The position numbers were made by a program, and so were the translations under genes. Of a stretch of 61,903 bases of DNA, positions 6,961 through 33,870 are shown piece by piece. This stretch comes from Aestuariivita sp. (GTDB lineage: Bacteria; Pseudomonadota; Alphaproteobacteria; Rhodobacterales; Rhodobacteraceae), in the NCBI GenBank assembly GCA_026710055.1, contig JAPORV010000439.1, forward strand, positions 1 to 61,903, read 5' to 3'. Below the pieces are notes generated by a model that saw only the letters and a program-made list of their open reading frames with translations, was not told the origin of the DNA and ran no database searches. Numbering within the stretch: position 1 is the first letter of the stretch; the number at the start of each line of letters is the position of its first letter.

Positions 6961-7629
6961 ATGACCACGGCAACTCATGTTCGAAATAGTCAGCATCACG
7001 ACACCTTAGAGCACCAAAAAAAGGGCCTTGAGACGGAGATAAAGCGTGTTCGCCGAAAGGAAGAAAAACGTCTTATTGCGGCGGCAGAAAAAGCAGGTTT
7101 TTTTGAGGTTCGTATTCCGTCAACACGTCTGATTGCGATGATTGAGGCGGAAAAAGCCGCCGTCTCGTTCAAGCTCTCGACCATTGTAAAACTCAAGCAA
7201 AATCTGAACAGTTTATCACATGCCAAGCGTAAAATTGATACCCGTCGCAAAATCATTTTAGGCAGTTTTGTTGTGGCGCAATGCCGGCATAAACCTGACA
7301 TTCACGACGAAATTGCCCGTGATATCAAAGAGTATTTGAGCCACCACCCGAACCAGAAACGTGCGGGTGACCATTTGGCCGTCCTGTCGGCCTTTTTGGA
7401 TGACCCGCATGACCAAGACGCACAAGCGCCCAAAACGCCCGATCAGCTCAACAACGAGCGCACGCATCGTCATGTCCTGCTGGGCACATGGCTGTTGGAA
7501 CGCCGGACACTCAATCCAACGGTATCCTGGCTGATTCAAACAGAACTGAAGGGGTTTTTAGCCCAGGACCAAAAAGCCGATGGCTACCAGGAATGGCTAG
7601 CGGATGTGTTAGAGTTCGAGCCCCTGTGA
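6961..7629 (+). CDS. TraD-like relaxosome accessory protein
   Basis: 222 aa with a charged coiled-coil N-terminus. The motif KIDTRRKIILGSFVVAQ resembles the DTRRKI-LG core of Ti-type TraD proteins. The gene is convergent with traA and overlaps its 3' end by 21 nt. Confidence 0.45.
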   Translation: MTTATHVRNSQHHDTLEHQKKGLETEIKRVRRKEEKRLIAAAEKAGFFEVRIPSTRLIAMIEAEKAAVSFKLSTIVKLKQNLNSLSHAKRKIDTRRKIILGSFVVAQCRHKPDIHDEIARDIKEYLSHHPNQKRAGDHLAVLSAFLDDPHDQDAQAPKTPDQLNNERTHRHVLLGTWLLERRTLNPTVSWLIQTELKGFLAQDQKADGYQEWLADVLEFEPL

Positions 7630-19337: not shown

Positions 19338-19913
19338 CTAGGCGGTCTGCTGTTTGTTCAGAGTTCGGTAGACGGTTGGGCGTGATACCGAGAAGATCTC
19401 GGCGAGATCGCTGATCGTGTAGTTCCCGCTATCATGCATGCGCCAAAGTTCCTTCCTTTGTTTTTCGGACAGTTTCGGGGATTTCCCCCGGAGCTTTCCC
19501 TTGGCTTTGGCAATGGCCATGCCCTCACGGGTGCGCATCCGGATCAGGTCAGCCTCGAACTCTGCGAAGGTGGCGACGATGTTGAAAAACATCCGGCCCA
19601 TCGGGTCAGAGGGGTCGTGGATGGTTGGGCCGAGGGCGAGCGTCACGCCCCTCCGTTCGAGTTCCTGGGCAATGTCACGTGCATCTGGAACGGAACGAGC
19701 CAGACGGTCCAGTTTTGACACGACGAGCGTGTCGCCTTCGCGTAGCGCCGCAAGCGCCTGGGCGAGACCTGGGCGATCTCTTCCGGTTCCAGTCAGTCCG
19801 TGGTCTGTGTAAATTCGGTCCTCGGTCACACCCAGTTCGAATAGGGCCTTCCGCTGTGCCTCAAGGTCCTGAGCGTGGGTCGAGCAACGGGCATATCCGA
19901 TTTTGATAGTCAT
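19338..19913 (-). CDS. Serine recombinase (resolvase/invertase family)
   Basis: ORF 19338..19955, with the likely start at MTIKIGYARCST (ATG 19913). The motifs YARCSTHAQDL and DRLARS, plus a C-terminal HTH (ISDLAEIFSVSRPTVYR), are typical of small serine recombinases. Confidence 0.9.
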   Translation of the reverse strand: MTIKIGYARCSTHAQDLEAQRKALFELGVTEDRIYTDHGLTGTGRDRPGLAQALAALREGDTLVVSKLDRLARSVPDARDIAQELERRGVTLALGPTIHDPSDPMGRMFFNIVATFAEFEADLIRMRTREGMAIAKAKGKLRGKSPKLSEKQRKELWRMHDSGNYTISDLAEIFSVSRPTVYRTLNKQQTA

Positions 19914-20364
19914 AGCGGGACTGTACGAAAAGGCTCCCCTCATTGCAACATTCATCGTACCAATCTATTGAGACATGTTTCGGCCTTGTTTTGCAGAGTG
20001 GATGTTTTAGCCGGAAGCTGTCCGTTGAGCGTTCCACTATCGGACAACCCAAAACAACGCTCATACTCTCCCCCGGTACCTGCAGTCGTACCGAAATCCC
20101 GAAGGTATCTCTGATGAAAAACTCCTTATTACCTAACGGCAAGACCGCATTTTACCAAAAACGCCTATCGTCCACCTCACTTGCGCTGTGCCGGCGGCTG
20201 CTTTAGTCTCCCTTTGAGAGACACCGATCGATGTTGAGCTCTGACAATATGACAAACCGTCCCTCGTCATCAGAGCTTCTACTCAACCTTTTAGCACAAC
20301 ACTAGGGTCCGGTGAGAGAGGCTTAGTGGTGCACGTCACTGTTAAATTGGAAAAGGACATATTT

Positions 20365-21006
20365 ATGACTGACGCATCTTCAAACCAATCCCATGACGAT
20401 ACAAAAGATTTAAAACTGTTTTGTGATTTATGCGAATGGGCTTATCAATATTGGGCAATGTATTATGCGCTGTTTCATGCAATGCCGGATCGTTTGAAGC
20501 AACACAATGTCTCATTAAGAGAATTTTTAAAAACCCCGGAAGGTGCTTGTTTTAATCGTTTAAACAAGGCCATTCAGGATTATTGCATTCTAGAAATTGC
20601 TAAATTACATGATAAAAATACCAGAAGTTTAACAGTTCATCATATTCAAAAAAAACAGTTCTGGAACACAGAAGATCGACAGGAAATCAATAATTTGATT
20701 TCAGAATTAGAAAAGTTTTACGAATTGTTAAAAAATGCGCGTAACAAAATCCTGGCACATAACGATCTTGCTACATATCGAGATAATCTGGTTCTTGGCA
20801 ATTTTTCAGACGGAAAAGACGAAGTTTATTTCGAGAACCTAGCGGAATTATGCACGATCGTTTGGAGGAAAGTTCCCAATAAAGGTGCATGCCAGAGAAG
20901 TTTTACATTTACAAAATCCGGCCCTGCCAATAATTTATTAAATTCGGTGACCGAAGGACAAGCACTGGGCGAATTGATCGTCAAAGCATGGCGTAATAAG
21001 GTTTAA
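20365..21006 (+). CDS. HEPN-like (AbiU2-like) protein, possible abortive-infection/RNase effector
   Basis: ORF 20326..21006, with the likely start at ATG 20365. It contains ARNKILAHND, which fits the R-x4-6-H HEPN motif. The region is AT-rich and next to a recombinase. A decayed paralog lies at 28718..29010. Confidence 0.4.
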   Translation: MTDASSNQSHDDTKDLKLFCDLCEWAYQYWAMYYALFHAMPDRLKQHNVSLREFLKTPEGACFNRLNKAIQDYCILEIAKLHDKNTRSLTVHHIQKKQFWNTEDRQEINNLISELEKFYELLKNARNKILAHNDLATYRDNLVLGNFSDGKDEVYFENLAELCTIVWRKVPNKGACQRSFTFTKSGPANNLLNSVTEGQALGELIVKAWRNKV

Positions 21007-22108: not shown

Positions 22109-23758
22109 CTAAGCCCGACCGCCGTGCCTCATTCTATGAGCCCGAATTGTTGTCCAGCTGTTGCGAATGACCTTTAATTCATCCACCGTCTGATATCCTT
22201 CGGAGATCAACCAACGATCGCCAAAATCGAGTATCTCGTGAATGTCGCCGTTCGCAATTCGGTGCACTTGAAGAAATTCCGCAAACTGTTGTTCGGATGG
22301 TTCATGATAAATGAGAGCTAAGCCGCGAAACTCATTAGGCGAAAGTTCTAGTACACCACCTCCATAAAACCGACCGTTAATCTCAGCAAAAAGCATCGTT
22401 AACGACGTGTAGAATGAAAAGCATAGGCCTTGAGCGGTATACCCTTTTTTGAGACGCAATCCATAAGCTGCATCTGTCGTATAGGCGCCCGCTTCATTTA
22501 TCAGTACTCTGGGATGACTGTGTGAGCGCTTGAAAACGAATGCCTCTTCTGGTTCGACTAACGGCACCTGATACCAGTTTGAGCGCTTCCGGCATTTATA
22601 TCGTAAATGAATATCCCCTGCTTCACCAATCTCAATGTAAGCCTTCGCGGCAGGAGAAAGCCGCTCGCGTTCTCCTTCCAGGTATAACAGTAAACATGGT
22701 TGTCGCTCTGCGAGTTCATCGAAATGCGTGGATGTGAAAACCGGACTAGAAGACGCAAAGCTACCCTTCTTGAGAATGGGTTTGGTGTACTCAGAAAGGC
22801 CAAGCTTCGTGATGTCCATCTTTGTCCGAATGAAAAAATCATTTGCAGCCGACACAACACCCGGAGCGCTCGTCAAGAAATCCGAGACGCGACCAGTTTG
22901 TGATTGGAGCTTCTTGATCAGTCTCACCGAGGCTGTCGGTAATAGGTATGAATTAAGTTCGATTCCAACATGGTCACCATTCCGAAACTGTATCTTGAGG
23001 CCGTCAAGGTCACCAAGTTTCAGGAAGTCCGATACTTTGGAGATATACAAACCCGGTTTTGTCATCGGCTTTTTCTGAGCAATGAAAATGACTGCATCTT
23101 GATCAATTTCTCTAAACGCCCTTTGCGTGGATACCAAGATGTCCACGCGATCATATTCTCGCTGAATATGGTTAAGCACTTTTTGTCCATAATCAACGGT
23201 GAGGAGTTCATATGGGAGAACGAGAGCTACAACGCCGTCGTCAGCAACCAGCTTAGCGGCTGCGAGCAAGAATGCAGGCCAAATGTTCTTTAACCTGTTC
23301 AATGGGTAGTCAAAAGCAACCGCGAACCGCTTCAGGCTTTCCTTGACTTCCGTTGAAAAATTGTGACGGCGGATAAATGGAGGATTGCCTACGATCAGAT
23401 CAAATTTTTTTAGTTCTCCATCTTTAATTTCCCGGTCAACCGCATACTGGATAAAGTCACCTTGAATGAAATTTAGAATGTCGGCTTGATTATGGTAGCG
23501 GTGTTGTAGGTCACGGATAACCTGACTGTCTACATCAATGGCAGTGACCTTTATTGAGGAAGCTTCAAGACCTGTGAGCCCCGGTAGAAAGGCCCCATCG
23601 CCAACACTAGGCTCTAATACGTTGAGAGCCCGTGTTCCGAGCAACGAGACGCACTGCTCAACGACGGAAGCAGCAACGGCAACCGGCGTATAGACTGCCC
23701 CAGTGTGACGCACTGACGATCTCCAATCACTCATGAGCTTGACCTTCGTATCGATCAA
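22109..23758 (-). CDS. N6-adenine DNA methyltransferase (gamma-class, Eco57I/TaqI-like with C-terminal target-recognition domain)
   Basis: 549 aa with motif I LEPSVGDGAFL and motif IV DLIVGNPPFIRR (NPPF), followed by a long C-terminal domain. It is the last gene of an overlapping five-gene operon. Confidence 0.85.
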   Translation of the reverse strand: MIDTKVKLMSDWRSSVRHTGAVYTPVAVAASVVEQCVSLLGTRALNVLEPSVGDGAFLPGLTGLEASSIKVTAIDVDSQVIRDLQHRYHNQADILNFIQGDFIQYAVDREIKDGELKKFDLIVGNPPFIRRHNFSTEVKESLKRFAVAFDYPLNRLKNIWPAFLLAAAKLVADDGVVALVLPYELLTVDYGQKVLNHIQREYDRVDILVSTQRAFREIDQDAVIFIAQKKPMTKPGLYISKVSDFLKLGDLDGLKIQFRNGDHVGIELNSYLLPTASVRLIKKLQSQTGRVSDFLTSAPGVVSAANDFFIRTKMDITKLGLSEYTKPILKKGSFASSSPVFTSTHFDELAERQPCLLLYLEGERERLSPAAKAYIEIGEAGDIHLRYKCRKRSNWYQVPLVEPEEAFVFKRSHSHPRVLINEAGAYTTDAAYGLRLKKGYTAQGLCFSFYTSLTMLFAEINGRFYGGGVLELSPNEFRGLALIYHEPSEQQFAEFLQVHRIANGDIHEILDFGDRWLISEGYQTVDELKVIRNSWTTIRAHRMRHGGRA

Positions 23759-24338
23759 TAGCTATTGTGAGATCCCGATATCGTTCTAGAAGAGCAGTAT
23801 AGATTGCCGAATTCGGCAAATTAGACTGCTTGTAGCGTACGATCAGCAGATCAATTTCATCGCGTAGTTTTCTGGCTCTTCGTGAATGCCAAAGCACTTG
23901 GTGCCGAACAAGGTGGAGTCCCAGTCGCTTGAACATATACTGACCGAGAGCGCTCCTTGAAATGATCGCGCCTTCTGTCGATCTCGACAAATGAGCATCA
24001 TAGCACGGATCACAAGGATCAACAAACCCTCGCTTACCATCATTTGGCGTGGCAGGATCTAAGCCTACCCAATGACTGGATTTCCGCACATTGCAAAAGC
24101 GGCAAGCGTAGACGAGATTACCGTATTCAGTCTCAAGCGCCTTGAAGCGGCTCTTCGGTGCAAAGTGATCGATATGAAAGCAAATCGGATCACAGTGAAA
24201 ATCGCTATCATCGCAATAGCCACATCGTCCATTAAAGTCGGTCCGCAGATCATCACGGTAGTCGGTGTAATGTGGCCGAGAAGGCACATTCCTTCGCTGC
24301 GGTATCGCATCTCGAAGCATCAATACTCTATTCTCCAA
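23727..24338 (-). CDS. HNH endonuclease
   Basis: 203 aa. CGYCDD...HIDHFAPKS...NLVYACRFCNVRKS forms a Cys4 plus H-N-H core. The gene overlaps the methyltransferase start by 32 nt and the upstream gene by 11 nt. Confidence 0.8.
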   Translation of the reverse strand: MENRVLMLRDAIPQRRNVPSRPHYTDYRDDLRTDFNGRCGYCDDSDFHCDPICFHIDHFAPKSRFKALETEYGNLVYACRFCNVRKSSHWVGLDPATPNDGKRGFVDPCDPCYDAHLSRSTEGAIISRSALGQYMFKRLGLHLVRHQVLWHSRRARKLRDEIDLLIVRYKQSNLPNSAIYTALLERYRDLTIAIDRYEGQAHE

Positions 24339-24999
24339 GCGCGCGTTTCATATCGGCAATCAAATTCTCTGTCGCATGCAGCAATTCATTACGTTTACGG
24401 AACACATCTTTCTTTACCTCTATCGGAACTTGAGCGTCCGCACCGAGGGATGCTTCCAATTTGTGATCAAGTTCGATGAGTCGGCTGACATGCCGCGCTT
24501 GGCGTTCATCCACTGGAATTGCGACGAGTTGTACCAATTCCTCTTCCCAACTTTTTACTAGATCTTGATGCTTTTGGATTTGTTGAGCGACGCGCTCAAA
24601 AAGAGAGCGGCCACTATGCGCGTCGGCATTGATGTCCTTCGAATAGACACGGTTAACGTCGGCTGAACTTGAAAGGGCGTCCTGCTCGAATGATGTTCTA
24701 ATGAAGCAGGGGAAATCCGCTCTGATCCCAAGAAACCTCTCGACTATCTGTTCTCCAGAGTATTCGAGCGGAGCCGCCTCGGTCAGATTGAAATCTGTTA
24801 TAAGCGCGTCAATGTCGAGCGACAAAATATGCTTTAGCATCTCCTCGATATTCTGTAGAGGTTTGAGCAAATAAATTTTCCCAAAGAGATCGCTGTCGTA
24901 AGCATCAGTATAGAAGTTAGCAAGTTCATCATCCTTCTCGTCAATATAGGCGATGTTGGGACGTCGGCCATTGAGGGAAGGCTCTTCTGGCTCGTTCAT
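24328..24999 (-). CDS. Receiver (REC)-like domain protein with helical C-terminal extension, no recognisable output domain
   Basis: 223 aa. IAYIDEKDDE (acidic pocket) and IDALITDFNL (candidate phospho-acceptor Asp) are arranged as in CheY-like receivers. A 4-nt start/stop overlap links it to the upstream kinase-like gene. Confidence 0.5.
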   Translation of the reverse strand: MNEPEEPSLNGRRPNIAYIDEKDDELANFYTDAYDSDLFGKIYLLKPLQNIEEMLKHILSLDIDALITDFNLTEAAPLEYSGEQIVERFLGIRADFPCFIRTSFEQDALSSSADVNRVYSKDINADAHSGRSLFERVAQQIQKHQDLVKSWEEELVQLVAIPVDERQARHVSRLIELDHKLEASLGADAQVPIEVKKDVFRKRNELLHATENLIADMKRALGE

Positions 25000-27584
25000 C
25001 GTGCTTTTTTCCTTTTGTAAAGAGGCAACGTTAGTGCTAGAGAGAAATGGGGCTGGCCCATCTTCGACAATATCTCTACCCGCCCCCCGTAGTCGTCAAA
25101 GATCGCCTTAACGAGCCACATACCAATACCAGTGCCGGGTAAGTCATTGTTTTGAGTCTCTCGCTTTGAAGTATAGCCATACAGAAAAATATCTTCGGCG
25201 ATATTAAAAGAAGCAGGAATTCCCGGCCCATTGTCTTTATATTCGAAATGCACTTGGTCATCTGTGATGTCTTTTACCTTGATAACGATCTCACGGCTCG
25301 CCTGCTGCGAGGGGCGACTAAAGGCTTCAAATGAGTTGATGATCAAGTTGTAGAAGATACTGTCGATATCGATTTCATATGCAAGGACATGTGGGTCGGT
25401 CTCAATTGATTCAGGAACAGCTAAGTCGATGCTGCGCTCAGAAAGGAACTCACGCCAATACTGTTTGAGATTCCTGAGGTAGGATTGCCACGCGATTGAA
25501 CCGCGCCGTCTTTTAACCGGCGAAACAGAAGCAAGGGCAAAATCAACCCAGCGGCTTACTTTTTCATCTTCACGCCCCCAGCGTTTCAGAATGTTGTATG
25601 GATCCACTAGATTAGGAAGCAGCTTGACCTTTGACTTTTCCACAACCCTGTCTAGAGCGTTTTCCATGCGTTGTTGGCGCGACCCCATATTGGCCTTGAT
25701 CTGCTTAAGTTCATGGGTAAATGATACAAGCACCGTACCAAGAGTAGCCATGCCTCTCAAGACTTGAATTTCGTCCTTCAGAGAATCGTTCCTGCGTTCT
25801 GAGATATTGAGAGCTTCTGCCATTACTTTAGAGGAATCAGCGTCCGCAATAAACGATGATATAATTTCTGAGTTTTGCAACGATGGTGATGAAGAATCGT
25901 TATCAGTTTTCCCCTTCTGATTTGAGATTAGCACTTTATTTGCAATTTTCTTTCCCTTTTCTAGCACTCCGTCATCGGGATTATCTATTTCATAGGCTTC
26001 GTTGAAGTGAATGAAAACATAATTGCGATCACGCTCAAACTCGCGTATGAGTGCCAGAATTACTTTTCGAAAGAGTGCGAATGCTCGCTCATTCATAATA
26101 CCTTCGCGGTTTGACTGATCCGCAAGAAGTGAATTGCGCTCCTTCGAAATGTGGATCGTACCAGCAACTTGCTGCGGCGGCACACGCCAGTCGTGACCCT
26201 TTGTTGCAACGCCGGTAGGGTTTTGCGCCGTTCTTTGTCCCAAGAGTAACCAATCTGATCCTTGAGTGTTAGGTTCACCATACGGACGGACGCGAAATCC
26301 GTCACGATATAGCCGGATACCACCGGAAGCCTTGAGCCAATTACGGCGTTTTGTGACATTAAATCTTTTCTGAGAAAAGCGTTTCAGATTGTCGGATGTT
26401 GGATTCGAAAGCTTAAAGAAATATAATGTGAAATCTAAAGGACCGATGTTAAGTATATCCGCTTCGGTATCACCGTCGGTTAGAGTGACAATATCTGCAA
26501 GCTTCCTCTCGTAAGTCCGTATGCCTCTCTCAAAGTCCTCTTTTCGGTATCCAGACTTCTGTATACCTGGAAGAGTGTAGAAGGTGGGCGTTATACTGTC
26601 GGTATCAATCTCTTGCCGATAGATTTCAATTGCAGCTATACCGTCTTCGCGGACGTTTGCGTGCAGTTTGTAGTCAAATTGGTCTGGCGGGAAATTGTTG
26701 ATCCAACCGCTAGCCCTCGGAATTCTGTGGTCGTACACGAAGATGTTGAAATTGCCTCTATCCTTTAGAGGCAAAAGAGCTTCTAGCGTCTCCCTCAGCT
26801 TGATACTATCGCGCTGATCCCATATATCATGTAATGAACTTATTCCGATTGCAGTTCCGTGTGAAAACGATAACTTCGTGACGTTGTCATCTCGTACTGG
26901 CAAGTGCGTCGGAAGAAGTGCATCAAGGCCAACTGCGGATAACACGCTGTGGTAAGAGCGTGTCTCAGCTTTCAATATGGCAGTTACGTCATCAATGATT
27001 TTTCCTTCGCCTTCGAAATCACCCCAATCGACCTCCCAACATACTACTTCTCGCGAGAACTGCTGTAACGAGTAGAGCTTGCATTTTTGTCCCAACCGAT
27101 CTAATGCGAAACGACCAATGCCCTTGGCTCCAGTTAGAATCCGCCCGCCTGTAGATTTCGCGGTAATTTCCTTTACATCTGTACCGATGACCATCCAGAA
27201 TTGCTCAATGACTGCGCGAGACATGCCTTTACCATTGTCGACAATCCACAGATCCACAATGTTATCCAATTCCTTGGAAAGCATTGCGAGAGCGTCATCT
27301 TTGAGCCCATCCACAAGCTCGAATGTATCATCTTTGCTAGCATAAAATCTGCCACATCCCTTAAGAGTCTCTGACAATCCTACATAATCTTCAACGCTCA
27401 ATGATTGTGGAATACCCGGAAAACGGCGTAGAAAGAAAATAGCACACACGTCTGCATCTGCATCATAGGCATTCTTTACGAGTTCAGTGACCGCACTTTG
27501 AGAAGTGGCAACATTCTCACGACCAATAAGGCGAGCCGCACGGGCGGAAACTTTGAACGGAATCTTCTTCATATCACTATCCAA
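24996..27584 (-). CDS. Fusion protein: N-terminal MORC/HSP90-like GHKL ATPase (HATPase_c_3-like) + C-terminal histidine-kinase core (H-box + HATPase_c)
   Basis: 862 aa. The N-terminal Bergerat motifs are ELVKNAYDADA, VDNGKGMS and GAKGIGRFA. A middle GIRLYRDGFRVRPYG segment follows. The C-terminal part has FTHELKQI (H-box-like), NLIINSFEAF (N-box), KDNGPGIP (G1) and GTGIGMWLV (G2). Confidence 0.7.
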   Translation of the reverse strand: MDSDMKKIPFKVSARAARLIGRENVATSQSAVTELVKNAYDADADVCAIFFLRRFPGIPQSLSVEDYVGLSETLKGCGRFYASKDDTFELVDGLKDDALAMLSKELDNIVDLWIVDNGKGMSRAVIEQFWMVIGTDVKEITAKSTGGRILTGAKGIGRFALDRLGQKCKLYSLQQFSREVVCWEVDWGDFEGEGKIIDDVTAILKAETRSYHSVLSAVGLDALLPTHLPVRDDNVTKLSFSHGTAIGISSLHDIWDQRDSIKLRETLEALLPLKDRGNFNIFVYDHRIPRASGWINNFPPDQFDYKLHANVREDGIAAIEIYRQEIDTDSITPTFYTLPGIQKSGYRKEDFERGIRTYERKLADIVTLTDGDTEADILNIGPLDFTLYFFKLSNPTSDNLKRFSQKRFNVTKRRNWLKASGGIRLYRDGFRVRPYGEPNTQGSDWLLLGQRTAQNPTGVATKGHDWRVPPQQVAGTIHISKERNSLLADQSNREGIMNERAFALFRKVILALIREFERDRNYVFIHFNEAYEIDNPDDGVLEKGKKIANKVLISNQKGKTDNDSSSPSLQNSEIISSFIADADSSKVMAEALNISERRNDSLKDEIQVLRGMATLGTVLVSFTHELKQIKANMGSRQQRMENALDRVVEKSKVKLLPNLVDPYNILKRWGREDEKVSRWVDFALASVSPVKRRRGSIAWQSYLRNLKQYWREFLSERSIDLAVPESIETDPHVLAYEIDIDSIFYNLIINSFEAFSRPSQQASREIVIKVKDITDDQVHFEYKDNGPGIPASFNIAEDIFLYGYTSKRETQNNDLPGTGIGMWLVKAIFDDYGGRVEILSKMGQPHFSLALTLPLYKRKKAR

Positions 27585-27630
27585 TCCTCCAGAACACGAA
27601 TTGTGACATAATTGCGATCCATCATTTTAT

Positions 27631-28395
27631 TCAGAATTTTGCGGCACACACAGTAGCATAAGAATCAGGCAAAAGGCTCCGAGGAAATCCGTTCCATTCC
27701 TCTCCTTCAAGCAATCGACCGCCTGATTTTGCATGTGCTCCACCCCATTGTTTGAAAAAAAAAGCCACATCGAATCGTTCACAAGTCAATCGCAATTCCG
27801 TTGCCCATTCAGGATCCATTGCCCGCGCAAATGGCCCGCTCTCTCCACCCACAATCGCCCAAGCTATATCCGTCAAATCCACATTACCAATCGCTCCTAA
27901 AAGTGGTTCAAAAGAAATGAACCGTGCTTCCGAATTAATTTGACGGAGATGTTCGATACGTCCGATATGAGCACGGTCCTCCACAGATACACCTAACCAA
28001 ATATGCAATGGAATAAGTTGATTTCCATACCGTCTTTTTACATATTTCCGCATTAACGACGATCGCTTCGTCAATACCTGAAAAACATGCCATGATGCAA
28101 AATCCATAGTATCAAATACCTTATCAATATAATCGATTGGAATATCCTTATGAAAGAGATCACTCATGGAATTTACAAAGATCATTCTCGGCTTTTTCCA
28201 GCGTAATGGCTGCTCCAGACGTGATGGCCATAGCCGGAGATCAAAACCCTGTTCATAAGAATGTCCCGTGACACCGCGCCACCGTTCCGCAAAGCGCTCC
28301 GCATAACAATGATCACAACCCGGTCCAATCTTGGTACATCCTGTAACCGGATTCCACGTTGCATCCGTCCATTCAATCGCTGACTTTTGACCCAT
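27631..28395 (-). CDS. DUF5131 (phage Gp37/Gp68 family) protein
   Basis: ORF 27631..28425, with the likely start at MGQKSAIEW (ATG 28395). IEWTDATWNPVTGCTKIGPGCDHCYAERF is the characteristic N-terminal Cys motif of Gp37/Gp68-family proteins. The gene lies 46 nt upstream of the GHKL/kinase gene on the same strand. Confidence 0.75.
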   Translation of the reverse strand: MGQKSAIEWTDATWNPVTGCTKIGPGCDHCYAERFAERWRGVTGHSYEQGFDLRLWPSRLEQPLRWKKPRMIFVNSMSDLFHKDIPIDYIDKVFDTMDFASWHVFQVLTKRSSLMRKYVKRRYGNQLIPLHIWLGVSVEDRAHIGRIEHLRQINSEARFISFEPLLGAIGNVDLTDIAWAIVGGESGPFARAMDPEWATELRLTCERFDVAFFFKQWGGAHAKSGGRLLEGEEWNGFPRSLLPDSYATVCAAKF

Positions 28396-29010: not shown

Positions 29011-29400
29011 GGTTATTCTAGAGATGTGTTAAACGCTGTGTTGAAAGGTTATTCAACCTGCCTGTCTTTTTGAGCCCTGTCAAACGACCGACAGTCATTC
29101 CCGTTGAAATCGATTTCAGAGATGTGATATATACATAAAGATAAAGACATGTTGTGGTTTTTTTCATATATGAAGAAATACTATATGTTTATTTTGCTTT
29201 TCAACAAAAGGCCTGAAAGCGGAAAAAAATTCGCTTAAATGTAGAGTTTTGCAAGATCAATGGCTAACGAACGATATCGACTATCCGAAACTAATTACCT
29301 TGTGGGCAGGGTGGTTGATCGCTCGCTAAGGAACATTTTGCTGGCGTCATGGCACTGATGCGCGCCTCGCCGAACTGGACCGTGTTCAAACGGAATTTGA

Positions 29401-29712
29401 CACAGTCTTTTCCTAAGTATGAGGCGCAAAGGTTTCTAGCGCTGGGAGATGACGAATGACTCCCCCCCATATCCAAGTATCTGTGAAGGCCCTTACCTGC
29501 GCGGGAACCCCGTTTCCCTGTCCAAACGTTTGATTATAGTTCGCCTTAGAGTTGAACGGCGGGTCAAGATAGATCAGGTCAACGCACTGGCTCTGCCAAT
29601 CTTCCATGACTTTGAGACAGTCTCCGTAGTACAGGGAGTTGGGAATAGGGGAAGTCATTCGTCATCTCCCAGCGCTAGAAACCTTTGCGCCTCATACTTA
29701 GGAAAAGATTGT
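29401..29712. repeat. 61-bp inverted repeat pair (29401..29461 and 29652..29712, 1 mismatch) bracketing a ~190-bp segment
   Basis: The left arm is cacagtcttttcctaagtatgaggcgcaaaggtttctagcgctgggagatgacgaatgact. The reverse complement of the right arm differs only at position 5 (a for g). Confidence 0.9.
29462..29658 (-). pseudogene. 5' fragment of a DNA methyltransferase gene (DPPF motif), truncated by the left inverted-repeat arm
   Basis: MTSPIPNSLYYGDCLKVMEDWQSQCVDLIYLDPPFNSKANYN... is the typical N-terminus and motif IV (DPPF/Y) of beta-class N4/N6 methyltransferases. The reading frame runs into the repeat arm and stops after 81 codons (ORF 29413..29658). Confidence 0.6.
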
Positions 29713-29807
29713 GTATTGCGACCTACTGATGACATATATGTAGTTATCTCGCTATAAGTTTTGCCACGGCGTGGTGTAAATGTTGATAGAGATTTCGTTA
29801 TTGACAT
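29655..29807 (-). CDS. Hypothetical 50-aa ORF translationally coupled (ATGA) to the methyltransferase fragment
   Basis: The sequence is MSITKSLSTFTPRRGKTYSEITTYMSSVGRNTQSFPKYEAQRFLALGDDE. Its 3' end lies inside the right repeat arm. There is no homology support. Confidence 0.2.
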   Translation of the reverse strand: MSITKSLSTFTPRRGKTYSEITTYMSSVGRNTQSFPKYEAQRFLALGDDE

Positions 29808-30166: not shown

Positions 30167-31564
30167 TTATTTTGAATTTAATCGCCCATAAAAGCTCCTT
30201 TCTAAATTTAATTCACCAATAACAGCTTTCTTTATCATCCCAAGAAAATACCCACTTGGTAATTTGACCTCACCAGTGCAGTACTTATCGAAAGTGAGTA
30301 CTAGAGCTAATGTTGCTGCAGGCGCCCCGAGTTTATTTTGAGCGAATGTCCATAGTTTTTTGGGAATACCAATCATTGGACTTAACTGAGTGACAGCGCG
30401 GTGCAGATCATCCCAATGCCGAATATAGCCATTTGCGCTATGCGCAAAAGACGCAAACTCTGAACAGGCTTCTAAAACAACTTCCAGTTTTATTCCAGTG
30501 TTGTATTTTTTATTTAGCTCTTCTTCTAATTTCTGAATTTCAATTGCGATAGAATTGCTATCAGATAATGCGTCTAATGTGTTACTCTTCTGGTTTTTTA
30601 CAACTGGTTCAGTAGTATCTATTAACATTCCTTGAGTAGAAATTCCCGATTTAAGTGATTTCACTTCCAATAAATGATCGTCTCCCCTACCCTTTTGATC
30701 GGAATAGTTTATCGAGGTATTCTCTTGTTGCTCAGAATTTAGCTTGTGAAATGCCTCTTCAATCTTTTCATTTATTGCCTGCAACGATGTTAGATAACGC
30801 TTTAGAACTTGTGGGCATTCTTTTCGATTAGGCATTTTAAGCAAATGATCTTCAAACATGCTATGTAGATTTACCCAAGTTTGATTTGAGCTATATTGTT
30901 TAGCATCATCTAAACTCTTGCGAATTAATCTTCGTAAGACTGTAATTTGCCTACGAAGTTGATCTCTATGCTCATTCTCGGCTTGAATCTCGTCTTCTAA
31001 TTGTTCAAATTCCTCTATTCGTTTTGCTAAAGGTGATAGATCAAAACCATAAGCCTCTGTGATAATACCTTCCCCGTTTCTTTTTCCCCAGCGTTTACCG
31101 TTTGGGCTATTTTTGAAATTAAGGACTCCAATTTTTTCCAAGCGGCGAGTATGACGTTTAACCGCAGAAAGCGATAGCCCAGTTCGTTCAATGAGCGATT
31201 GATTTGATGGCCAGACAATTGGTGTTCTTCCGTGATCCCAGTCTTTTGTTTGAGAATAAGAAAGAAGCGTATCCATGAGCATCATGGTGGTAGGTTTTAG
31301 GCCAATATATGCCCCTACTCTTTTGATGGCAGCGGTCGCCCTACCCTTAGATAAATGACGCACATTGGTAGTTTTGCGTTGTCTACTAACTTTCGCAGAT
31401 TGCTTTAATGAGGTTTGCCAGCTTGAATTTCGTAATTCATTCATCTGTGTGTGATTGATCGTCAATATACCAATGTCTGGTAATGTCGATTGTGCTGATT
31501 CTGTCATTACTTTAACAGTAGCCAACAAAAAACCCTTCTCATTTAATGAGAATTTGGCTTGCAA
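30167..31564 (-). CDS. repC: Replication initiator RepC
   Basis: 465-aa ORF; the true start may be an internal ATG. PIVWPSNQSLIERTGLSLSAVKRHTRRLEKIGVLNFKNSPNGKRWGKRNGEGIITEAYGFDLSPL is the hallmark RepC N-domain. The C-terminal ...LPSGYFLGMIKKAVIGELNLERS matches the RepC C-domain. The gene is third in a repA-repB-repC operon. Confidence 0.9.
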   Translation of the reverse strand: MQAKFSLNEKGFLLATVKVMTESAQSTLPDIGILTINHTQMNELRNSSWQTSLKQSAKVSRQRKTTNVRHLSKGRATAAIKRVGAYIGLKPTTMMLMDTLLSYSQTKDWDHGRTPIVWPSNQSLIERTGLSLSAVKRHTRRLEKIGVLNFKNSPNGKRWGKRNGEGIITEAYGFDLSPLAKRIEEFEQLEDEIQAENEHRDQLRRQITVLRRLIRKSLDDAKQYSSNQTWVNLHSMFEDHLLKMPNRKECPQVLKRYLTSLQAINEKIEEAFHKLNSEQQENTSINYSDQKGRGDDHLLEVKSLKSGISTQGMLIDTTEPVVKNQKSNTLDALSDSNSIAIEIQKLEEELNKKYNTGIKLEVVLEACSEFASFAHSANGYIRHWDDLHRAVTQLSPMIGIPKKLWTFAQNKLGAPAATLALVLTFDKYCTGEVKLPSGYFLGMIKKAVIGELNLERSFYGRLNSK

Positions 31565-31599
31565 AGTTCTATTGAAACTGCTAAAAGAAAATATTGTTT

Positions 31600-31685
31600 T
31601 GAATGTTGTCTGTTGGTCGCAGACATCAGCAAGTGCTGAATAAGTACTAGCAGCCCTCGAACTTTAGCTTCGGGGGTTTTCTTTT
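31600..31685 (+). ncRNA. Candidate repABC counter-transcribed RNA (ctRNA, incAlpha) with intrinsic terminator
   Basis: The repB-repC intergenic region carries a hairpin on the strand opposite the operon. Its stem is ccctcgaa/ttcggggg (31654..31661 and 31669..31676, 8 bp including one G-U), followed by ttttctttt. This is the canonical position and orientation of the repABC ctRNA. The 5' end is not defined. Confidence 0.4.
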
Positions 31686-31717
31686 ATTGACCTTTCTCCT
31701 TTCATTAATTTCATCAA

Positions 31718-32686
31718 TTATTGTAAATCACTTGTAGAGTTTACAGCTGTAAACTCTTGATGAGCATTTTGAATGATATTGGGCAGGTTAGCTTCTAGCC
31801 ATTCGCCAAATTGAGCATTGATACCAGTTTTTTTTGCAATCACGGTAACTTGTTGTTTGTTTGACTGGATTGAAACGCCATTCACCGGTATTGTCGGCTC
31901 ACTATTGAGTTTTTCTTTGTGAAAGATATTATCAATTGAGCGCAACAAAGTTTCTAATCGTTCATCAGAGTTGGCATTATGACATTGATGAAGAATTTGA
32001 GTTGCAAACTCTTTCGTAACAACATCAGACCTGAAATACTTCGCAAGTGTAGTCCACTTTGAACGTCCTGAATTTGGTGCAGCACCAATTTGATTACCAA
32101 CTTCATGGGGTACATATTTTGTAATATTTGTAAGATGTGATAATCCAGACTTTGAAACATTCAAAACATGCATTGTTGTTTTTGTATCATGTCCAAAACG
32201 TAGGATTTCATCCGCAAATCGTGCTCGTTCATAGAATGACAGATTTCGACGAGCGGCATTCTCCAGACCTTTTGCAAGCAAAGCGGACGCATCGTCAAGA
32301 TCTTGCACGTTAGCGCGAACCTTGATTTTTAGTTCACGACAAGCTTGTAAGCGTCGACGACCAAAGATTACTTCATAGCGCGTTTGGTTCTTTGTCTTTC
32401 GCACAAGAATAGGTACTTGCTGTCCACTGAGTTGAATACTTTCCTTTAGTGATTGAAAGTCTTGAGCATCATCTTTTGAGTGACTGTTGATAAATTCCGG
32501 AAGACGATCAATAGGTCCCCAATCATCAATTAAATTGACATCAATTTCTTTAATTGCCGCAAGCGAACCTTGTAATGCTCCTAAGACCGGAGATGATGGT
32601 TTAATTATGCGATCTTCTGGTTCATTATGGCTATGCACAATTGTTTTTGCGATTTTTGACATATCTTTGAGAGATTTACGCGCCAT
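31718..32686 (-). CDS. repB: Partition protein RepB (ParB family)
   Basis: 322 aa. The ParB-box-like sequence is QVPILVRKTKNQTRYEVIFGRRRLQACREL. The start overlaps the repA stop, and a parS palindrome lies in its 3' end. Confidence 0.88.
   Translation of the reverse strand: MARKSLKDMSKIAKTIVHSHNEPEDRIIKPSSPVLGALQGSLAAIKEIDVNLIDDWGPIDRLPEFINSHSKDDAQDFQSLKESIQLSGQQVPILVRKTKNQTRYEVIFGRRRLQACRELKIKVRANVQDLDDASALLAKGLENAARRNLSFYERARFADEILRFGHDTKTTMHVLNVSKSGLSHLTNITKYVPHEVGNQIGAAPNSGRSKWTTLAKYFRSDVVTKEFATQILHQCHNANSDERLETLLRSIDNIFHKEKLNSEPTIPVNGVSIQSNKQQVTVIAKKTGINAQFGEWLEANLPNIIQNAHQEFTAVNSTSDLQ
31739..31754. promoter_or_regulatory. parS centromere site (perfect palindrome GTTTACAGCTGTAAAC)
   Basis: The sequence matches the repABC parS consensus GTTNNCNGCNGNNAAC and lies inside the 3' end of repB. 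Confidence 0.75.
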
Positions 32687-33870
32687 TAGATTCTCCCCCA
32701 GACTTTCTTAATCATTTGTTCTACCTCAGTGCCGACTGCATCCATTGAAGATTTAGCACGGTCATAAGTTGCCCTAGTCATTTCAGATCTAACAACTTCG
32801 TAAATTGATTGTTTTAATAATGTTGCATCTGAGATGGCCGTGCTCTTTAAGGCTGTAGCAGACATAACGCGATCATGAAAAAGTGCGCGCATGAAGGAGG
32901 TTAATTGCTGTGAGGGTATATCCGTAGGTTCGTCACGCGAGATGAGAAACTTAAAATAATCATAATTGAGTGATGCGCCGTGTTGTTCAATAACATCCAT
33001 ATAAGCTGCTGAAAGTTCTAGAAATTGTGCTGTTGATGAAACATCAAGCATTGATGGCGTTAAAGGTACGATAATGGATGTTGCCGTTGCCATTCCGGTA
33101 ATAGTGAGAAAACCAAGTTGGGGTGGGCTATCAATGAGAATGAGATCGTAATCATCTTCAATTTGTTTCAGCGCCGAGCGAAGTCGTTCAAAGAATGGTG
33201 TTTCTTGGGATGTATTGACAGCAGAATCATTCTCGAATTCTGATAAAGCAAGTCGGGCTGGAGCAACTGATAGACCTGGAAAATATGTTGGTATGATAAC
33301 ATCACGCATCGGATGTTGATTATCGTATCCAATCGCATCATAAATTGTTAAGCCATCAAATTCCAATTCTGGGCTAATACCACACATGGAGGTAAGTGAA
33401 CCTTGCGGATCTAAATCAATGGCCAAGACTCGGTAGCCACGAAGCGCAAAATAATGTGCCAGATGAATAGCTGTTGTACTCTTGCTGCTTCCACCTTTGA
33501 AATTCATAAGCTGAAAAATTTGCAGTTTATCTCCGCGATTGCGTCTGGGCACATATTTTCCAGGTAAACGCGATGACTTCTCAAGGATATGCCGAGCATC
33601 TAAAATTTCTTGTGCGGAGTAATATCTTCGTCCTGCCTTTACTTCTTTTGGTTCTGCAAGAGTTCCTTCGCCATGTAATTTGCGCATAAATTGACCCGAA
33701 ACCCCGAGTAACTCAGCCGTTTCTGGGGCGGAAAACATACGAAGGGTTTTAATTTGCTCCGGAGAAAAAGCGGCTAACAAGTGCTCACGAATTGCTGACG
33801 ATAATCGTTCAGAAATTTCTCGTACAAGCGCTGATGGCTGTTGAACTTGTATCGGTGTCACGGGTAACAT
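32686..33870 (-). CDS. repA: Partition ATPase RepA (ParA family with N-terminal HTH)
   Basis: 394 aa with a deviant Walker A (MNFKGGSSKSTTAIHLA) and LAIDLDPQGSLT. An HTH-like N-terminus (FSAPETAELLGVSGQFMRKL) is present. It is the first gene of the operon. Confidence 0.92.
   Translation of the reverse strand: MLPVTPIQVQQPSALVREISERLSSAIREHLLAAFSPEQIKTLRMFSAPETAELLGVSGQFMRKLHGEGTLAEPKEVKAGRRYYSAQEILDARHILEKSSRLPGKYVPRRNRGDKLQIFQLMNFKGGSSKSTTAIHLAHYFALRGYRVLAIDLDPQGSLTSMCGISPELEFDGLTIYDAIGYDNQHPMRDVIIPTYFPGLSVAPARLALSEFENDSAVNTSQETPFFERLRSALKQIEDDYDLILIDSPPQLGFLTITGMATATSIIVPLTPSMLDVSSTAQFLELSAAYMDVIEQHGASLNYDYFKFLISRDEPTDIPSQQLTSFMRALFHDRVMSATALKSTAISDATLLKQSIYEVVRSEMTRATYDRAKSSMDAVGTEVEQMIKKVWGRI

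Follow-up and report, generated by a model that had tools for sequence, protein, structure and literature searches.

In Septu, PtuB-type HNH nucleases need an ATPase partner, and the PtuAB nuclease is reportedly inhibited by ATP. GHKL paraMORCs occur in restriction-modification (R-M) operons, paraMORC1 alongside HNH genes, and a looping or clamping role has been proposed for them; the paper describing them is silent on kinase fusions and on receivers (Iyer, Abhiman & Aravind 2008, PMC2292703). VcSduA (paraMORC3 / Shedu type I-D), which combines GHKL, clamp and nuclease, is a validated anti-phage protein whose ATPase is needed (PMC12137116). In work that built on the paraMORCs, kinases of HATPase_c_3–DHp–HATPase_c architecture and their receiver-like partners have also been linked to R-M, an association that has statistical support and comes from computational work only. 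That set lies mostly in C5-methylase/Vsr contexts within +/-10 genes, and its mechanism was proposed no further than a ‘regulatory role’ (Bellieny-Rabelo, Pretorius & Moleleki 2021, PMC8011034).

The window analysed here, a 61,903-nt stretch of DNA from Aestuariivita sp. (contig JAPORV010000439.1), belongs to a plasmid carrying a packed cassette that encodes a GHKL-histidine kinase, a receiver, an HNH nuclease and an N6-adenine methylase. With a probability of roughly 0.55, this cassette is an R-M system in which His-to-Asp phosphotransfer gates a PtuB-like nuclease.

Arrangement and conservation of the cassette

The original prediction described an operon of five genes. All five open reading frames are present on the minus strand, and the claimed junctions of +46, -4, -11 and -32 nt are reproduced with the longest-ORF starts; the gene-caller ATG starts, all with a Shine-Dalgarno-like motif ahead of them, give +58, -4, +7 and -8 nt, and the packing is still tight. 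The GHKL-histidine kinase gene lies at 24996–27572 (858 aa from ATG 27572; 862 aa from TTG 27584) and is followed by the gene for a stand-alone receiver (REC) at 24328–24999 (223 aa). The gene for the PtuB-like HNH nuclease occupies 23727–24320 (197 aa from ATG 24320; 203 aa in the longest ORF, from TTG 24338), and that for the putative gamma-class N6-adenine methyltransferase (MTase) 22109–23734 (541 aa from ATG 23734; 549 aa in the longest ORF, from TTG 23758). The kinase and receiver genes share 4 nt (ATGA) where the one stops and the other starts; at the HNH stop and the MTase start (ATG 23734) the overlap is 8 nt.

Outside this replicon the same set recurs: in 77 of 80 species-level loci, kinase, receiver, HNH and MTase genes share a strand and keep this order, with junctions that overlap or nearly abut. 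Because these four downstream genes keep their order to such an extent, the arrangement is far beyond chance. The 80 loci span Alpha-, Beta- and Gammaproteobacteria, Bacteroidota, Bacillota, Nitrospinota, Verrucomicrobiota, Thermodesulfobacteriota, Acidobacteriota, CPR bacteria and Sericytochromatia; one cassette locus is archaeal in name (a Methanolobus-labelled contig), and annotated plasmids of Bacillus, Salipiger, Bacteroides and Ensifer also carry the cassette. The four proteins also co-vary in their pairwise distances (Mantel r 0.92, 0.85 and 0.73; 0/999 permutations reach the observed values), which shows co-inheritance and is not proof of direct interaction. Every catalytic residue that the proposed chemistry calls for is near-invariant despite overall identities of 28-35%. 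The four-gene cassette is inherited and horizontally transferred as one unit.

It is extremely improbable that an ordinary type II pair (MTase and HNH) merely lies beside an unrelated two-component system by chance. Each half does resemble a known stand-alone module, but the fixed order and overlapping frames across many phyla already contradict this explanation, and the correlated evolutionary distances stand against it as well. Moreover, the receiver has no output domain for regulating anything else, and the kinase lacks a sensor of the usual kind.

The fifth gene, placed by the original prediction at the head of the operon, encodes DUF5131 (Gp37/Gp68; 27631–28395, minus strand; PF07505 at 5.7e-93) and in this plasmid lies on the same strand, 46-58 nt upstream of the kinase gene. 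This position, together with matches of about 1e-100 to PADLOC PDC-M41B and PDC-M30B, the B components of two candidate systems, would suit a fifth functional component leading the operon. However, DUF5131 occurs within 7 kb of none of the 80 related loci (0/80) and is likewise missing from P. aeruginosa; the closest relatives, with receivers 73-74% identical, have a MazE/PIN pair directly upstream of the kinase gene and no DUF5131. Its co-occurrence is confined to near-identical copies of this plasmid (contigs L011-L014), and the other four proteins match none of the PDC-M30 or PDC-M41 partner models in PADLOC. A functional role in the operon is thus very unlikely and already effectively refuted; DUF5131 is an unrelated neighbour, not part of the conserved cassette. 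Of the functional unit first proposed, the kinase/receiver/HNH/MTase part stands and DUF5131 drops out.

The predicted defence-island setting holds, with one correction. An AbiU2-type HEPN gene (20326-21006) and a recombinase-like ORF (19338-19955) are neighbours, and GC around the cassette is 0.45-0.48 against 0.51-0.59 in the transfer region; yet the plasmid’s own repABC genes lie inside the same low-GC block, so the block is not purely accessory. Cassette contexts are mobile elements and defence islands, with integrases, toxin-antitoxin pairs, anti-phage HerA and an AbiU2 HEPN gene.

Domains and catalytic residues

The kinase is an Hsp90/MORC-like GHKL ‘clamp’ module joined to a complete, canonical DHp-CA core; Pfam, a PDB profile search and Foldseek together support the combination of MORC/HSP90-type ATPase and histidine-kinase core that had been predicted. 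The protein is soluble, without membrane or classical sensor domain. An Hsp90/MORC-type GHKL ATPase and a middle domain take up residues ~1-560; the DHp, which carries H620-E621, and a C-terminal HATPase_c follow. Its Pfam matches are HATPase_c_3 at 1.8e-14 and HATPase_c at 7.1e-14, and residues 584-849 align with the DHp-CA of HK853, FixL and ZraS in the PDB profile search. In Foldseek, the C-terminal part matched histidine-kinase cores and the N-terminal part Hsp90 N+M domains over 561-578 columns; the AF2 model is of moderate confidence (pLDDT 74.9, below 50 in segments 430-462 and 557-615). Invariant motifs are E30/N34/D37, D112xGxG, G148-A156, H620-E621, N742/N746, D780xGxG and G813TGxG. 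The N-terminal module resembles the GHKL region of BbrUII/HgiDII-type restriction enzymes, and this 560-residue clamp module is conserved to the same degree as the kinase core.

The predicted structure marks the 223-aa protein as a true receiver domain, complete in its phospho-acceptor pocket and followed by a helical tail, in line with the earlier description of a receiver-like protein with no DNA-binding output. It matches no Pfam, NCBIfam or PADLOC model. The AF2 model (pLDDT 80.5) has a (βα)5 domain at ~16-120 with phospho-acceptor D69, and a C-terminal extension (129-220) of three helices with no DNA-binding domain; the top Foldseek PDB matches are almost all response-regulator receivers, with probability 1.0. 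In a set of 46 sequences D20-E21, D69, T102 and K121 never vary, and across the locus set, at ~33% overall identity, D69 is kept in 89/89 and T102 and K121 in 88/89 each.

These residues bear on a reading that dispenses with the phosphorelay, in which both GHKL domains would be ATP-driven DNA clamps or loopers joining recognition and cleavage sites, and the receiver-fold protein a structural adaptor between ATPase and HNH. The looping/clamping proposal for R-M paraMORCs (Iyer, Abhiman & Aravind 2008, PMC2292703), the alignment of the N-terminal module with Hsp90 N+M and the fact that VcSduA functions without a kinase module (PMC12137116) are consistent with it. But the DHp helix can be aligned with true kinases and its H620-E621 never varies, and the retention of D69, T102 and K121 is hard to explain unless phosphoryl chemistry is used; we consider a system of clamps alone improbable.

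The HNH gene product matches Pfam HNH at 5e-6 and PADLOC PtuB at 3.4e-17 (residues 24-185 covered), scores under the cut-offs against NCBIfam TIGR02646 and PtuB, and has as its closest solved chains PtuB of Septu and retron I-A (E about 0.01). C33, D51-H52, N68, C73, N77 and K80 are conserved in 88-90/90 sequences, and the catalytic core is intact; there is no recognisable DNA-recognition or specificity domain. The MTase matches M_Eco57I_C at 1e-31, Eco57I at 2.3e-10 and N6_Mtase in Pfam, PADLOC MTase_II (PDLC03267) at 1.6e-118 over its full length, and M.BseCI as the closest solved structure at 1.7e-10. It keeps GxxYTP, GxGxF and N117-P118-P119, has the full motif set of an active N6-adenine enzyme and is, from its sequence, an active-looking gamma-class N6A enzyme with its own M.Eco57I-type C-terminal target-recognition domain. 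Intact MTase motifs and conserved HNH core residues support the two proteins as the predicted R-M core.

Pfam matches were obtained for DUF5131, HATPase_c_3, HATPase_c, HNH, Eco57I and N6_Mtase, as named in the original prediction, and the motifs it quoted are real and conserved: FTHELKQ holds H620-E621, ITDFNL holds D69, and NPPF is kept in 94-95/96 sequences.

Proposed control of restriction

The earlier hypothesis that restriction is gated by an ATP-dependent sensor and phosphotransfer is plausible. The methylase would mark self DNA, and the N-terminal GHKL module, in sensor-domain position, would dimerise or clamp in an ATP-dependent way and thereby sense a state of DNA or protein, one that might be tied to unmodified or invading DNA. 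Detection would stimulate the C-terminal CA domain to autophosphorylate the kinase at H620, from which the phosphoryl group would move to receiver D69, and the phospho-receiver, via its helical extension, would bind the PtuB-like HNH and license it to cut DNA. Given the translational coupling of the genes and a receiver that lacks DNA-binding output, control would act at the protein level rather than on transcription. Both the signal sensed and whether phosphorylation activates or inhibits are parts of this model that we purely infer.

The same anatomical evidence would fit the reversed logic, in which the phosphorelay serves as a brake, or as a timer during establishment. Until self DNA carries its methyl marks, or for as long as ATP stays high, the phospho-receiver (or the kinase as phosphatase) would keep the HNH inactive, and collapse of the relay would let restriction fire, analogous to C-protein control of type II R-M or to the buffer receivers in Detocs. 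The cassette is highly mobile and would therefore need safe entry into unmethylated hosts, it encodes no HTH or C-protein, and the reported ATP inhibition of the Septu PtuAB nuclease points the same way. Activation and inhibition look alike in sequence data, however, and a pure timer has no obvious need for a 560-residue clamp module conserved like the kinase core; a brake is a contender, if an unlikely one.

Variant operons retain the HK-REC core with the nuclease swapped for an MBL-fold hydrolase, the methylase swapped for type I M or C5, or the receiver lengthened by an extra C-terminal domain. These variants are as expected of an HK-REC regulatory core serving interchangeable R-M effectors. 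Each element of the model also has a precedent: VcSduA, the R-M-linked kinase/receiver pairs and the ATPase-dependent PtuB nucleases of Septu.

Relation to described systems

PADLOC, run on the proteins, assigned no named system to the gene set, as the original prediction had anticipated, and the literature searched held no experimental work on the cassette (methylation, restriction, phosphotransfer or phage protection). The HEF_HK/Response_reg_2 pairs (PMC8011034) have in common with it a soluble kinase with N-terminal HATPase_c_3, DHp His-acidic motif and C-terminal HATPase_c, a small receiver-like neighbour that has a conserved Asp but lacks an output domain, a non-random tie to R-M genes (HNH and N6 methylases among them), and a proposed paraMORC origin. 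The present locus differs in being a fixed, translationally coupled four-gene operon, in which the HNH is PtuB-like and the N6A methylase is of Eco57I type. The kinase does not match the HEF_HK model PF19191, which was in the library, even at E<=1; the receiver family gave no match to Response_reg_2 (PF19192) in a search run without a positive control; and neither model appears in the precomputed Pfam columns of 74 receiver and 120 kinase homologs.

With paraMORCs the cassette shares an N-terminal GHKL domain whose ATP motifs are intact, a middle/transducer-like domain after it, and a place in R-M operons with methylases and nucleases; in VcSduA, too, a GHKL domain controls a nuclease. Unlike paraMORCs, it has no SF-II helicase, its GHKL protein ends in a complete histidine-kinase core and a receiver is interposed; unlike in VcSduA, its nuclease is a separate protein, not fused. 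Septu and retron I-A PtuAB likewise have a PtuB/TIGR02646-type HNH, a small nuclease working with an ATPase partner, but here there is no PtuA ABC-type ATPase, the HNH falls below the NCBIfam models’ thresholds, and an MTase, absent in Septu, is present. Detocs (DtcABC) offers the same concept of a soluble histidine kinase acting through receiver-domain proteins on effector control; no protein of the locus matches the PADLOC Detocs models, and here the effector is a separately encoded HNH rather than a receiver-fused nucleosidase, the sensor is a GHKL module and an MTase would serve self-marking.

Classical type II R-M systems with an Eco57I/BseCI-like gamma-class N6A MTase have in common the full-length MTase match, NPPF, M_Eco57I_C and an HNH nuclease gene overlapping the MTase gene. 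They differ from this locus, which adds two strictly co-inherited ATP-dependent signalling proteins and has a nuclease without recognisable specificity domain and no C-protein. The claim of an undescribed system was overstated, as the theme was published in 2008 and 2021 and the link of kinase/receiver pairs to R-M had already been predicted; what is new is the particular fixed four-gene cassette, which is unnamed and unmatched by the HEF_HK model.

A four-gene cassette on a repABC-type plasmid

The minus strand carries five closely spaced open reading frames, all exactly where the original prediction placed them: a DUF5131 gene (27631-28395; PF07505, Pfam 5.7e-93), the gene of an 862-aa GHKL/histidine-kinase protein (24996-27584; Pfam HATPase_c_3 and HATPase_c), a 223-aa receiver gene (24328-24999; recognised by its AlphaFold2 fold and invariant residues), an HNH gene (23727-24338; Pfam HNH) and a methyltransferase gene (22109-23758; Pfam Eco57I, M_Eco57I_C and N6_Mtase). 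The predicted junctions of +46, -4, -11 and -32 nt are reproduced with longest-ORF starts; the intact HNH gene overlaps the methylase gene. ATG starts are preferred by the gene caller on identical metagenomic contigs; Shine-Dalgarno-like motifs precede ATG 27572, ATG 24320 and ATG 23734, and the junctions then become +58, -4, +7 and -8 nt. Under either start choice, the last four genes are predicted to be translationally coupled. Scans for promoters and terminators returned no more sites than shuffled sequence would, and are uninformative on transcription units.

The window represents a repABC-type plasmid, as indicated by a repC (RP-C)/parB/parA cluster on the minus strand (30167-33870), and identical proteins are encoded by contigs in four other metagenome samples. 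The block has a GC content of 0.45-0.48, against 0.51-0.59 in the transfer region. It is thus a lower-GC block as predicted, but not a purely accessory one, because the plasmid's own repABC genes lie inside the same stretch. An AbiU2-type HEPN gene (20326-21006, plus strand; PF18734, 1.6e-13) lies beside the cassette and accompanies it in near-identical contigs; a further flanking gene, a serine-recombinase-like ORF, lies at 19338-19955 on the minus strand. The same strand carries a single 3555-aa ORF (7609-18276), unusually large for a conjugative relaxase; by eye, its N-terminus resembles a relaxase and several of its modules look like P-loop helicases. Between DUF5131 and repC, an 81-aa N-terminal fragment of a DPPF-type N4/N6 DNA methyltransferase (29413-29658, minus strand) is framed by two 67-nt inverted repeats (29400-29466 and 29648-29714; 97% complementarity). 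The arrangement suggests the remains of a mobile element, or else a small invertible or MITE-like element.

Conservation of the gene neighbourhood separates four of the five genes from the fifth. In 185,579 species, each covered by one genome, at least 581 relatives were recovered, and the best 80 loci were compared through iterative profile searches with the five window proteins. The order kinase, receiver, HNH, methylase is kept on one strand in 77 of these 80, and junction gaps in intact loci are mostly -32 to +16 nt. The exceptions are two loci cut by contig ends (L061 and L079) and one decayed kinase remnant (L031). Hosts include Alpha-, Beta- and Gammaproteobacteria, many Bacteroidota, Bacillota, Nitrospinota, Verrucomicrobiota, Thermodesulfobacteriota, Acidobacteriota, one CPR bacterium, Sericytochromatia and a 286-kb contig labelled Methanolobus; this distribution points to extensive horizontal transfer of the cassette. 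Pairwise protein distances over 84 loci are strongly correlated between the kinase and the receiver (r=0.92), HNH protein (0.85) and methylase (0.73), values reached in 0/999 permutations. These correlations show that the four proteins are inherited together as a unit and are by themselves no proof of physical interaction.

DUF5131 is absent from all of these best 80 of at least 581 loci. The prediction of a functional unit therefore stands for four genes and fails for DUF5131 as a fifth component; the five-gene reading is rejected, since the comparative loci have the cassette without it. Plasmid-copy contigs with an identical receiver protein do carry DUF5131. Relatives with a 73-74% identical receiver have a MazE/PIN pair in its place, directly upstream of the kinase gene, and the P. 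aeruginosa copy sits inside an integrative element with nothing co-oriented upstream. Nor was DUF5131 found beside the plasmid homologs in Rhizobium, Ensifer, Bacillus, Salipiger, Bacteroides and Deinococcus. The protein matches the B components of the PADLOC candidates PDC-M30 and PDC-M41 (~1e-100), and no neighbouring protein matches their A partner in PADLOC; only the methylase fragment lies upstream. It carries a C-x7-C-x2-C motif and weakly matches 'radical SAM mobile pair protein A'. DUF5131 is probably left over, as an orphan, from a different module.

Among plasmids, tblastn finds full-length kinase homologs in the same six genera. In Bacillus, Salipiger and Bacteroides, the genes are annotated as 'sensor histidine kinase / hypothetical ~215 aa / HNH endonuclease / N-6 DNA methylase'; the Ensifer ORFs have the same layout, and in Deinococcus the methylase is shifted to the front. 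No plasmid matched the block in a megablast search, so relatives in the plasmid collection exist at protein level only. The closest of them, on Rhizobium phaseoli pRphaN161d (comparison contig L005, 5944-11817; 50% identity), is decayed: its kinase is broken into two ORFs and the region of the methylase is interrupted. Phage genomes yield only two partial matches, in small unannotated faecal 'Bacteriophage sp.' fragments.

A constant core and exchangeable partners

Distant homologs retain the kinase-receiver core and swap other parts. On a Burkholderia aenigmatica plasmid (contig L007, 6622-11791), the order is methylase, GHKL-kinase, receiver and MBL-fold metallo-hydrolase, and a Hymenobacter volaticus plasmid (contig L102, 3421-8555) has the same layout, which is therefore found in two phyla. 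The cassette receiver profile matches the Burkholderia and Hymenobacter receivers at 4e-5 and 3e-7, respectively; in this variant the MBL protein presumably replaces HNH as the nuclease. Klebsiella and Deinococcus have the order methylase, kinase, receiver, HNH.

Conjugative plasmids of Campylobacter (41 Campylobacter plasmid records by tblastn; for example Campylobacter coli pCCDM224L, contig L010, 4803-9256) encode a GHKL-kinase, a 340-aa receiver protein with a C-terminal domain of 220 aa, and a convergent Dcm gene. The 340-aa protein may be a receiver-effector fusion. In a Stenotrophomonas rhizophila plasmid (CP031730.1), a C5-methylase and a kinase are followed by an unannotated 212-aa ORF (contig L101, 7135-7773), whose N-terminus looks receiver-like by eye ('VIDDE…LLVDYDL'); the ORF has no Pfam match, and another unannotated ORF, of 226 aa, comes after it. 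Such modularity would be expected if a shared regulatory core works with exchangeable effectors for modification and cleavage.

From predicted activities to a candidate phosphorelay

The kinase is a soluble protein built of HATPase_c_3, a DHp region with the core His, and HATPase_c. In an alignment of 11 sequences with 28-65% identity, all ATP-binding motifs of the N-terminal GHKL domain are kept (HATPase_c_3 1.8e-14; E30/N34/D37, DxGxG and the Gly-rich lid invariant), as are the H620-E621 H-box and the N, G1 and G2 boxes of the CA domain. A PDB profile search aligns residues 584-849 with the DHp-CA of HK853, FixL/YF1, ZraS and LvrB. In the AlphaFold2 model (pLDDT 74.9), the C-terminal third matches kinase cores and the first ~570 residues match full Hsp90 N and middle domains over 561-578 columns. 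The ATPase motifs are matched in conservation by a mid-domain block (residues 401-500; GGIRxYRDxFRVRPYGE…DWLxLG…DQSNREG). With clustering at 50% identity, an exhaustive HMMER search with residues 1-590 yields 313 clusters at E<=1e-30, rising to 2091 when the limit is relaxed to E<=1e-10. Lengths of 750-880 aa, which imply fusion to a kinase, predominate among the top 150; 28 of these fall below 700 aa and may be fragments. A 1259-aa protein (P0196) considered as a Rosetta-stone fusion was discarded: it joins YadA repeats to a partial module and most probably results from a chimeric gene call. Profile searches detect neither a receiver nor an HNH domain in the ~630-aa partners of the B. cereus and A. 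baumannii kinases.

The receiver gives no match to the sequence models of Pfam, NCBIfam and PADLOC, and its assignment comes from structure and conservation. D20-E21, D69, T102 and K121 are invariant in a 46-homolog alignment, and among 89 distinct sequences from divergent loci D69 is kept in 89/89, T102 and K121 in 88/89 each and D20 in 86/89. The AlphaFold2 model (pLDDT 80.5) has a (βα)5 domain that continues into a long α5 plus two more helices, and the conserved residues lie at the C-terminal ends of β1, β3, β4 and β5. Almost all Foldseek matches in the PDB are response-regulator receivers (FleR, XynC, PhyR, RcsB, DesR and KdpE; probability 1.0). The protein is thus a true receiver, and probably a phosphorylatable one. 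Its C-terminal 100 residues form three helices without a family match, and the modelled tail appears helical and non-DNA-binding.

Both presumed effectors retain their catalytic motifs. In the HNH protein, D51-H52, N68, N77 and the Cys ligands are conserved in 88-90/90 sequences; the nearest solved chains are PtuB proteins, weakly (E about 0.01), and no recognition domain is detectable in it. The methylase conserves GxxYTP, motif I and NPPF, and its nearest solved structure is M.BseCI. Methylase divergence, tested for concentration in a hypervariable target-recognition segment, is spread evenly and provides no argument on specificity.

These features are consistent with a system in which the methylase would mark self DNA. 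The GHKL-plus-middle module occupies the position of the sensor domain of ordinary kinases, where its ATP-dependent dimerisation or clamping would probably detect DNA that is unmodified or invading, or a complex formed on such DNA. Sensing would lead to autophosphorylation of H620 and transfer to D69, and the phospho-receiver would use its helical tail to activate the PtuB-like HNH. We give an activating phosphorelay switch for the nuclease a probability of roughly 0.55. The main alternative, the reverse logic with the relay acting as a brake or establishment timer, is distinctly less probable. A clamp working without any phosphotransfer is improbable given the near-perfect conservation of H620, D69, T102 and K121. 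Since the receiver lacks a DNA-binding output and the cassette has no HTH gene, control has to be exerted after translation.

Taken as a whole, the cassette might encode a restriction system found widely, in several hundred species-representative genomes, whose cutting step is licensed at the protein level by its own His-to-Asp phosphorelay: an Hsp90/MORC-like GHKL clamp would sense foreign or unmodified DNA, and a stand-alone receiver would switch the PtuB-type HNH nuclease. This full reading is tentative, its chances falling somewhat short of even. If true, it would be the first R-M system under two-component chemistry and a mechanistic tie between MORC-type ATPases and phosphosignalling. 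Restriction would then be gated by phosphotransfer and not only by transcription or subunit assembly, giving R-M biology a further principle of regulation and a second phosphorelay-based immune design beside Detocs. Eukaryotic relatives of MORC-like GHKL modules act in epigenetic silencing, and the bacterial modules would gain a testable role. The hypothesis is directly testable, because the cassette is compact (about 5.5 kb), the catalytic residues are identifiable and the cultivable Pseudomonas aeruginosa bears a 49-55% identical copy.

Relation to named systems and published families

PADLOC v2.0.0, one of the checks proposed with the original prediction, assigns the set to no named system. 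The sole match of the kinase is a marginal one to REase_II (0.0013), the receiver has none, and NCBIfam adds sub-threshold matches only. MADS, Detocs, Mza and other named systems are rejected on the PADLOC result; the only link to MADS is a generic match of the methylase to mad2 (5.6e-15). PADLOC-based censuses of defence and R-M systems probably miss this cassette, because PADLOC v2 has no system-specific kinase or receiver model; annotation pipelines label it 'sensor histidine kinase / hypothetical / HNH / N-6 DNA methylase'.

Individual proteins resemble parts of known systems. The HNH protein resembles PtuB of Septu (PADLOC 3.4e-17) but stays below the NCBIfam cut-offs, with 23.9 bits for PtuB against 150 and 33.6 for TIGR02646 against 52. 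The PtuA ABC-type ATPase of Septu is missing here, the sole PtuA match being to the HNH-containing part of one fused model. The methylase is a full-length type II match in PADLOC (MTase_II 1.6e-118) and, like type II R-M methylases, appears to be of active type with a target-recognition domain (Eco57I / M_Eco57I_C, NPP). With canonical two-component systems, the receiver shares the fold, the acidic pair, the acceptor Asp, the Thr/Ser and the Lys, but it fits neither the transcription-factor type of regulator nor that of a bare CheY.

The N-terminal part of the kinase recalls the paraMORC families. paraMORC1-5 were defined in R-M operons, paraMORC1 with HNH genes, and no kinase or receiver is mentioned there (PMC2292703; Iyer et al. 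2008). VcSduA, a paraMORC3 protein composed of a GHKL ATPase, a clamp-like middle and a nuclease, protects against phage and needs its ATPase (PMC12137116). The window kinase shares the N-terminal GHKL with intact ATP-binding motifs. As regards the S5-fold transducer domain that follows GHKL in paraMORC, its N-terminal ~570 residues align with Hsp90 N and middle domains, partly at low pLDDT, and S5 is not specifically identified. The SF-II helicase association is missing, as none of the 77 cassettes contains a helicase.

The closest published parallel is a computational survey that started from a Pectobacterium locus and defined HEF_HK (PF19191) and Response_reg_2 (PF19192) (PMC8011034; Bellieny-Rabelo et al. 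2021). Over 644 regions, kinase and receiver genes were linked in 91.6%, and the predominant architecture was HATPase_c_3+HEF_HK+HATPase_c. R-M genes were over-represented nearby, mostly type II C5-methylase/Vsr and also HNH and N6/N4 methylases; descent from paraMORC was proposed, and only 'a regulatory role' was speculated. The claim that the system is undescribed holds in that the set is unnamed, has no HEF_HK match and, in the literature searched, no experimental study of such a kinase/receiver R-M cassette was found, the only two papers citing PMC8011034 being on unrelated topics; it is weakened by the computational foreshadowing in that survey.

PF19191 gives no match to the window kinase at E<=1; its sub-threshold match to the A. 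baumannii homolog shows that the model is present in the library. PF19192 matches neither the window protein nor 46 family members and 10 variant receivers at E up to 10, a result that lacks a positive control, as none of the Campylobacter, Klebsiella, Burkholderia, Hymenobacter and Stenotrophomonas receivers in which one was sought matched. Both families are also missing from the precomputed Pfam annotation of 194 homologs (120 kinase and 74 receiver). The window cassette nevertheless shares with the HEF_HK group the kinase architecture, the adjacent kinase and receiver genes and the R-M linkage (77/80 loci). Since the architecture is the same and neither PF19191 nor PF19192 matches, the window clade is treated here as a divergent sister of the HEF_HK group.
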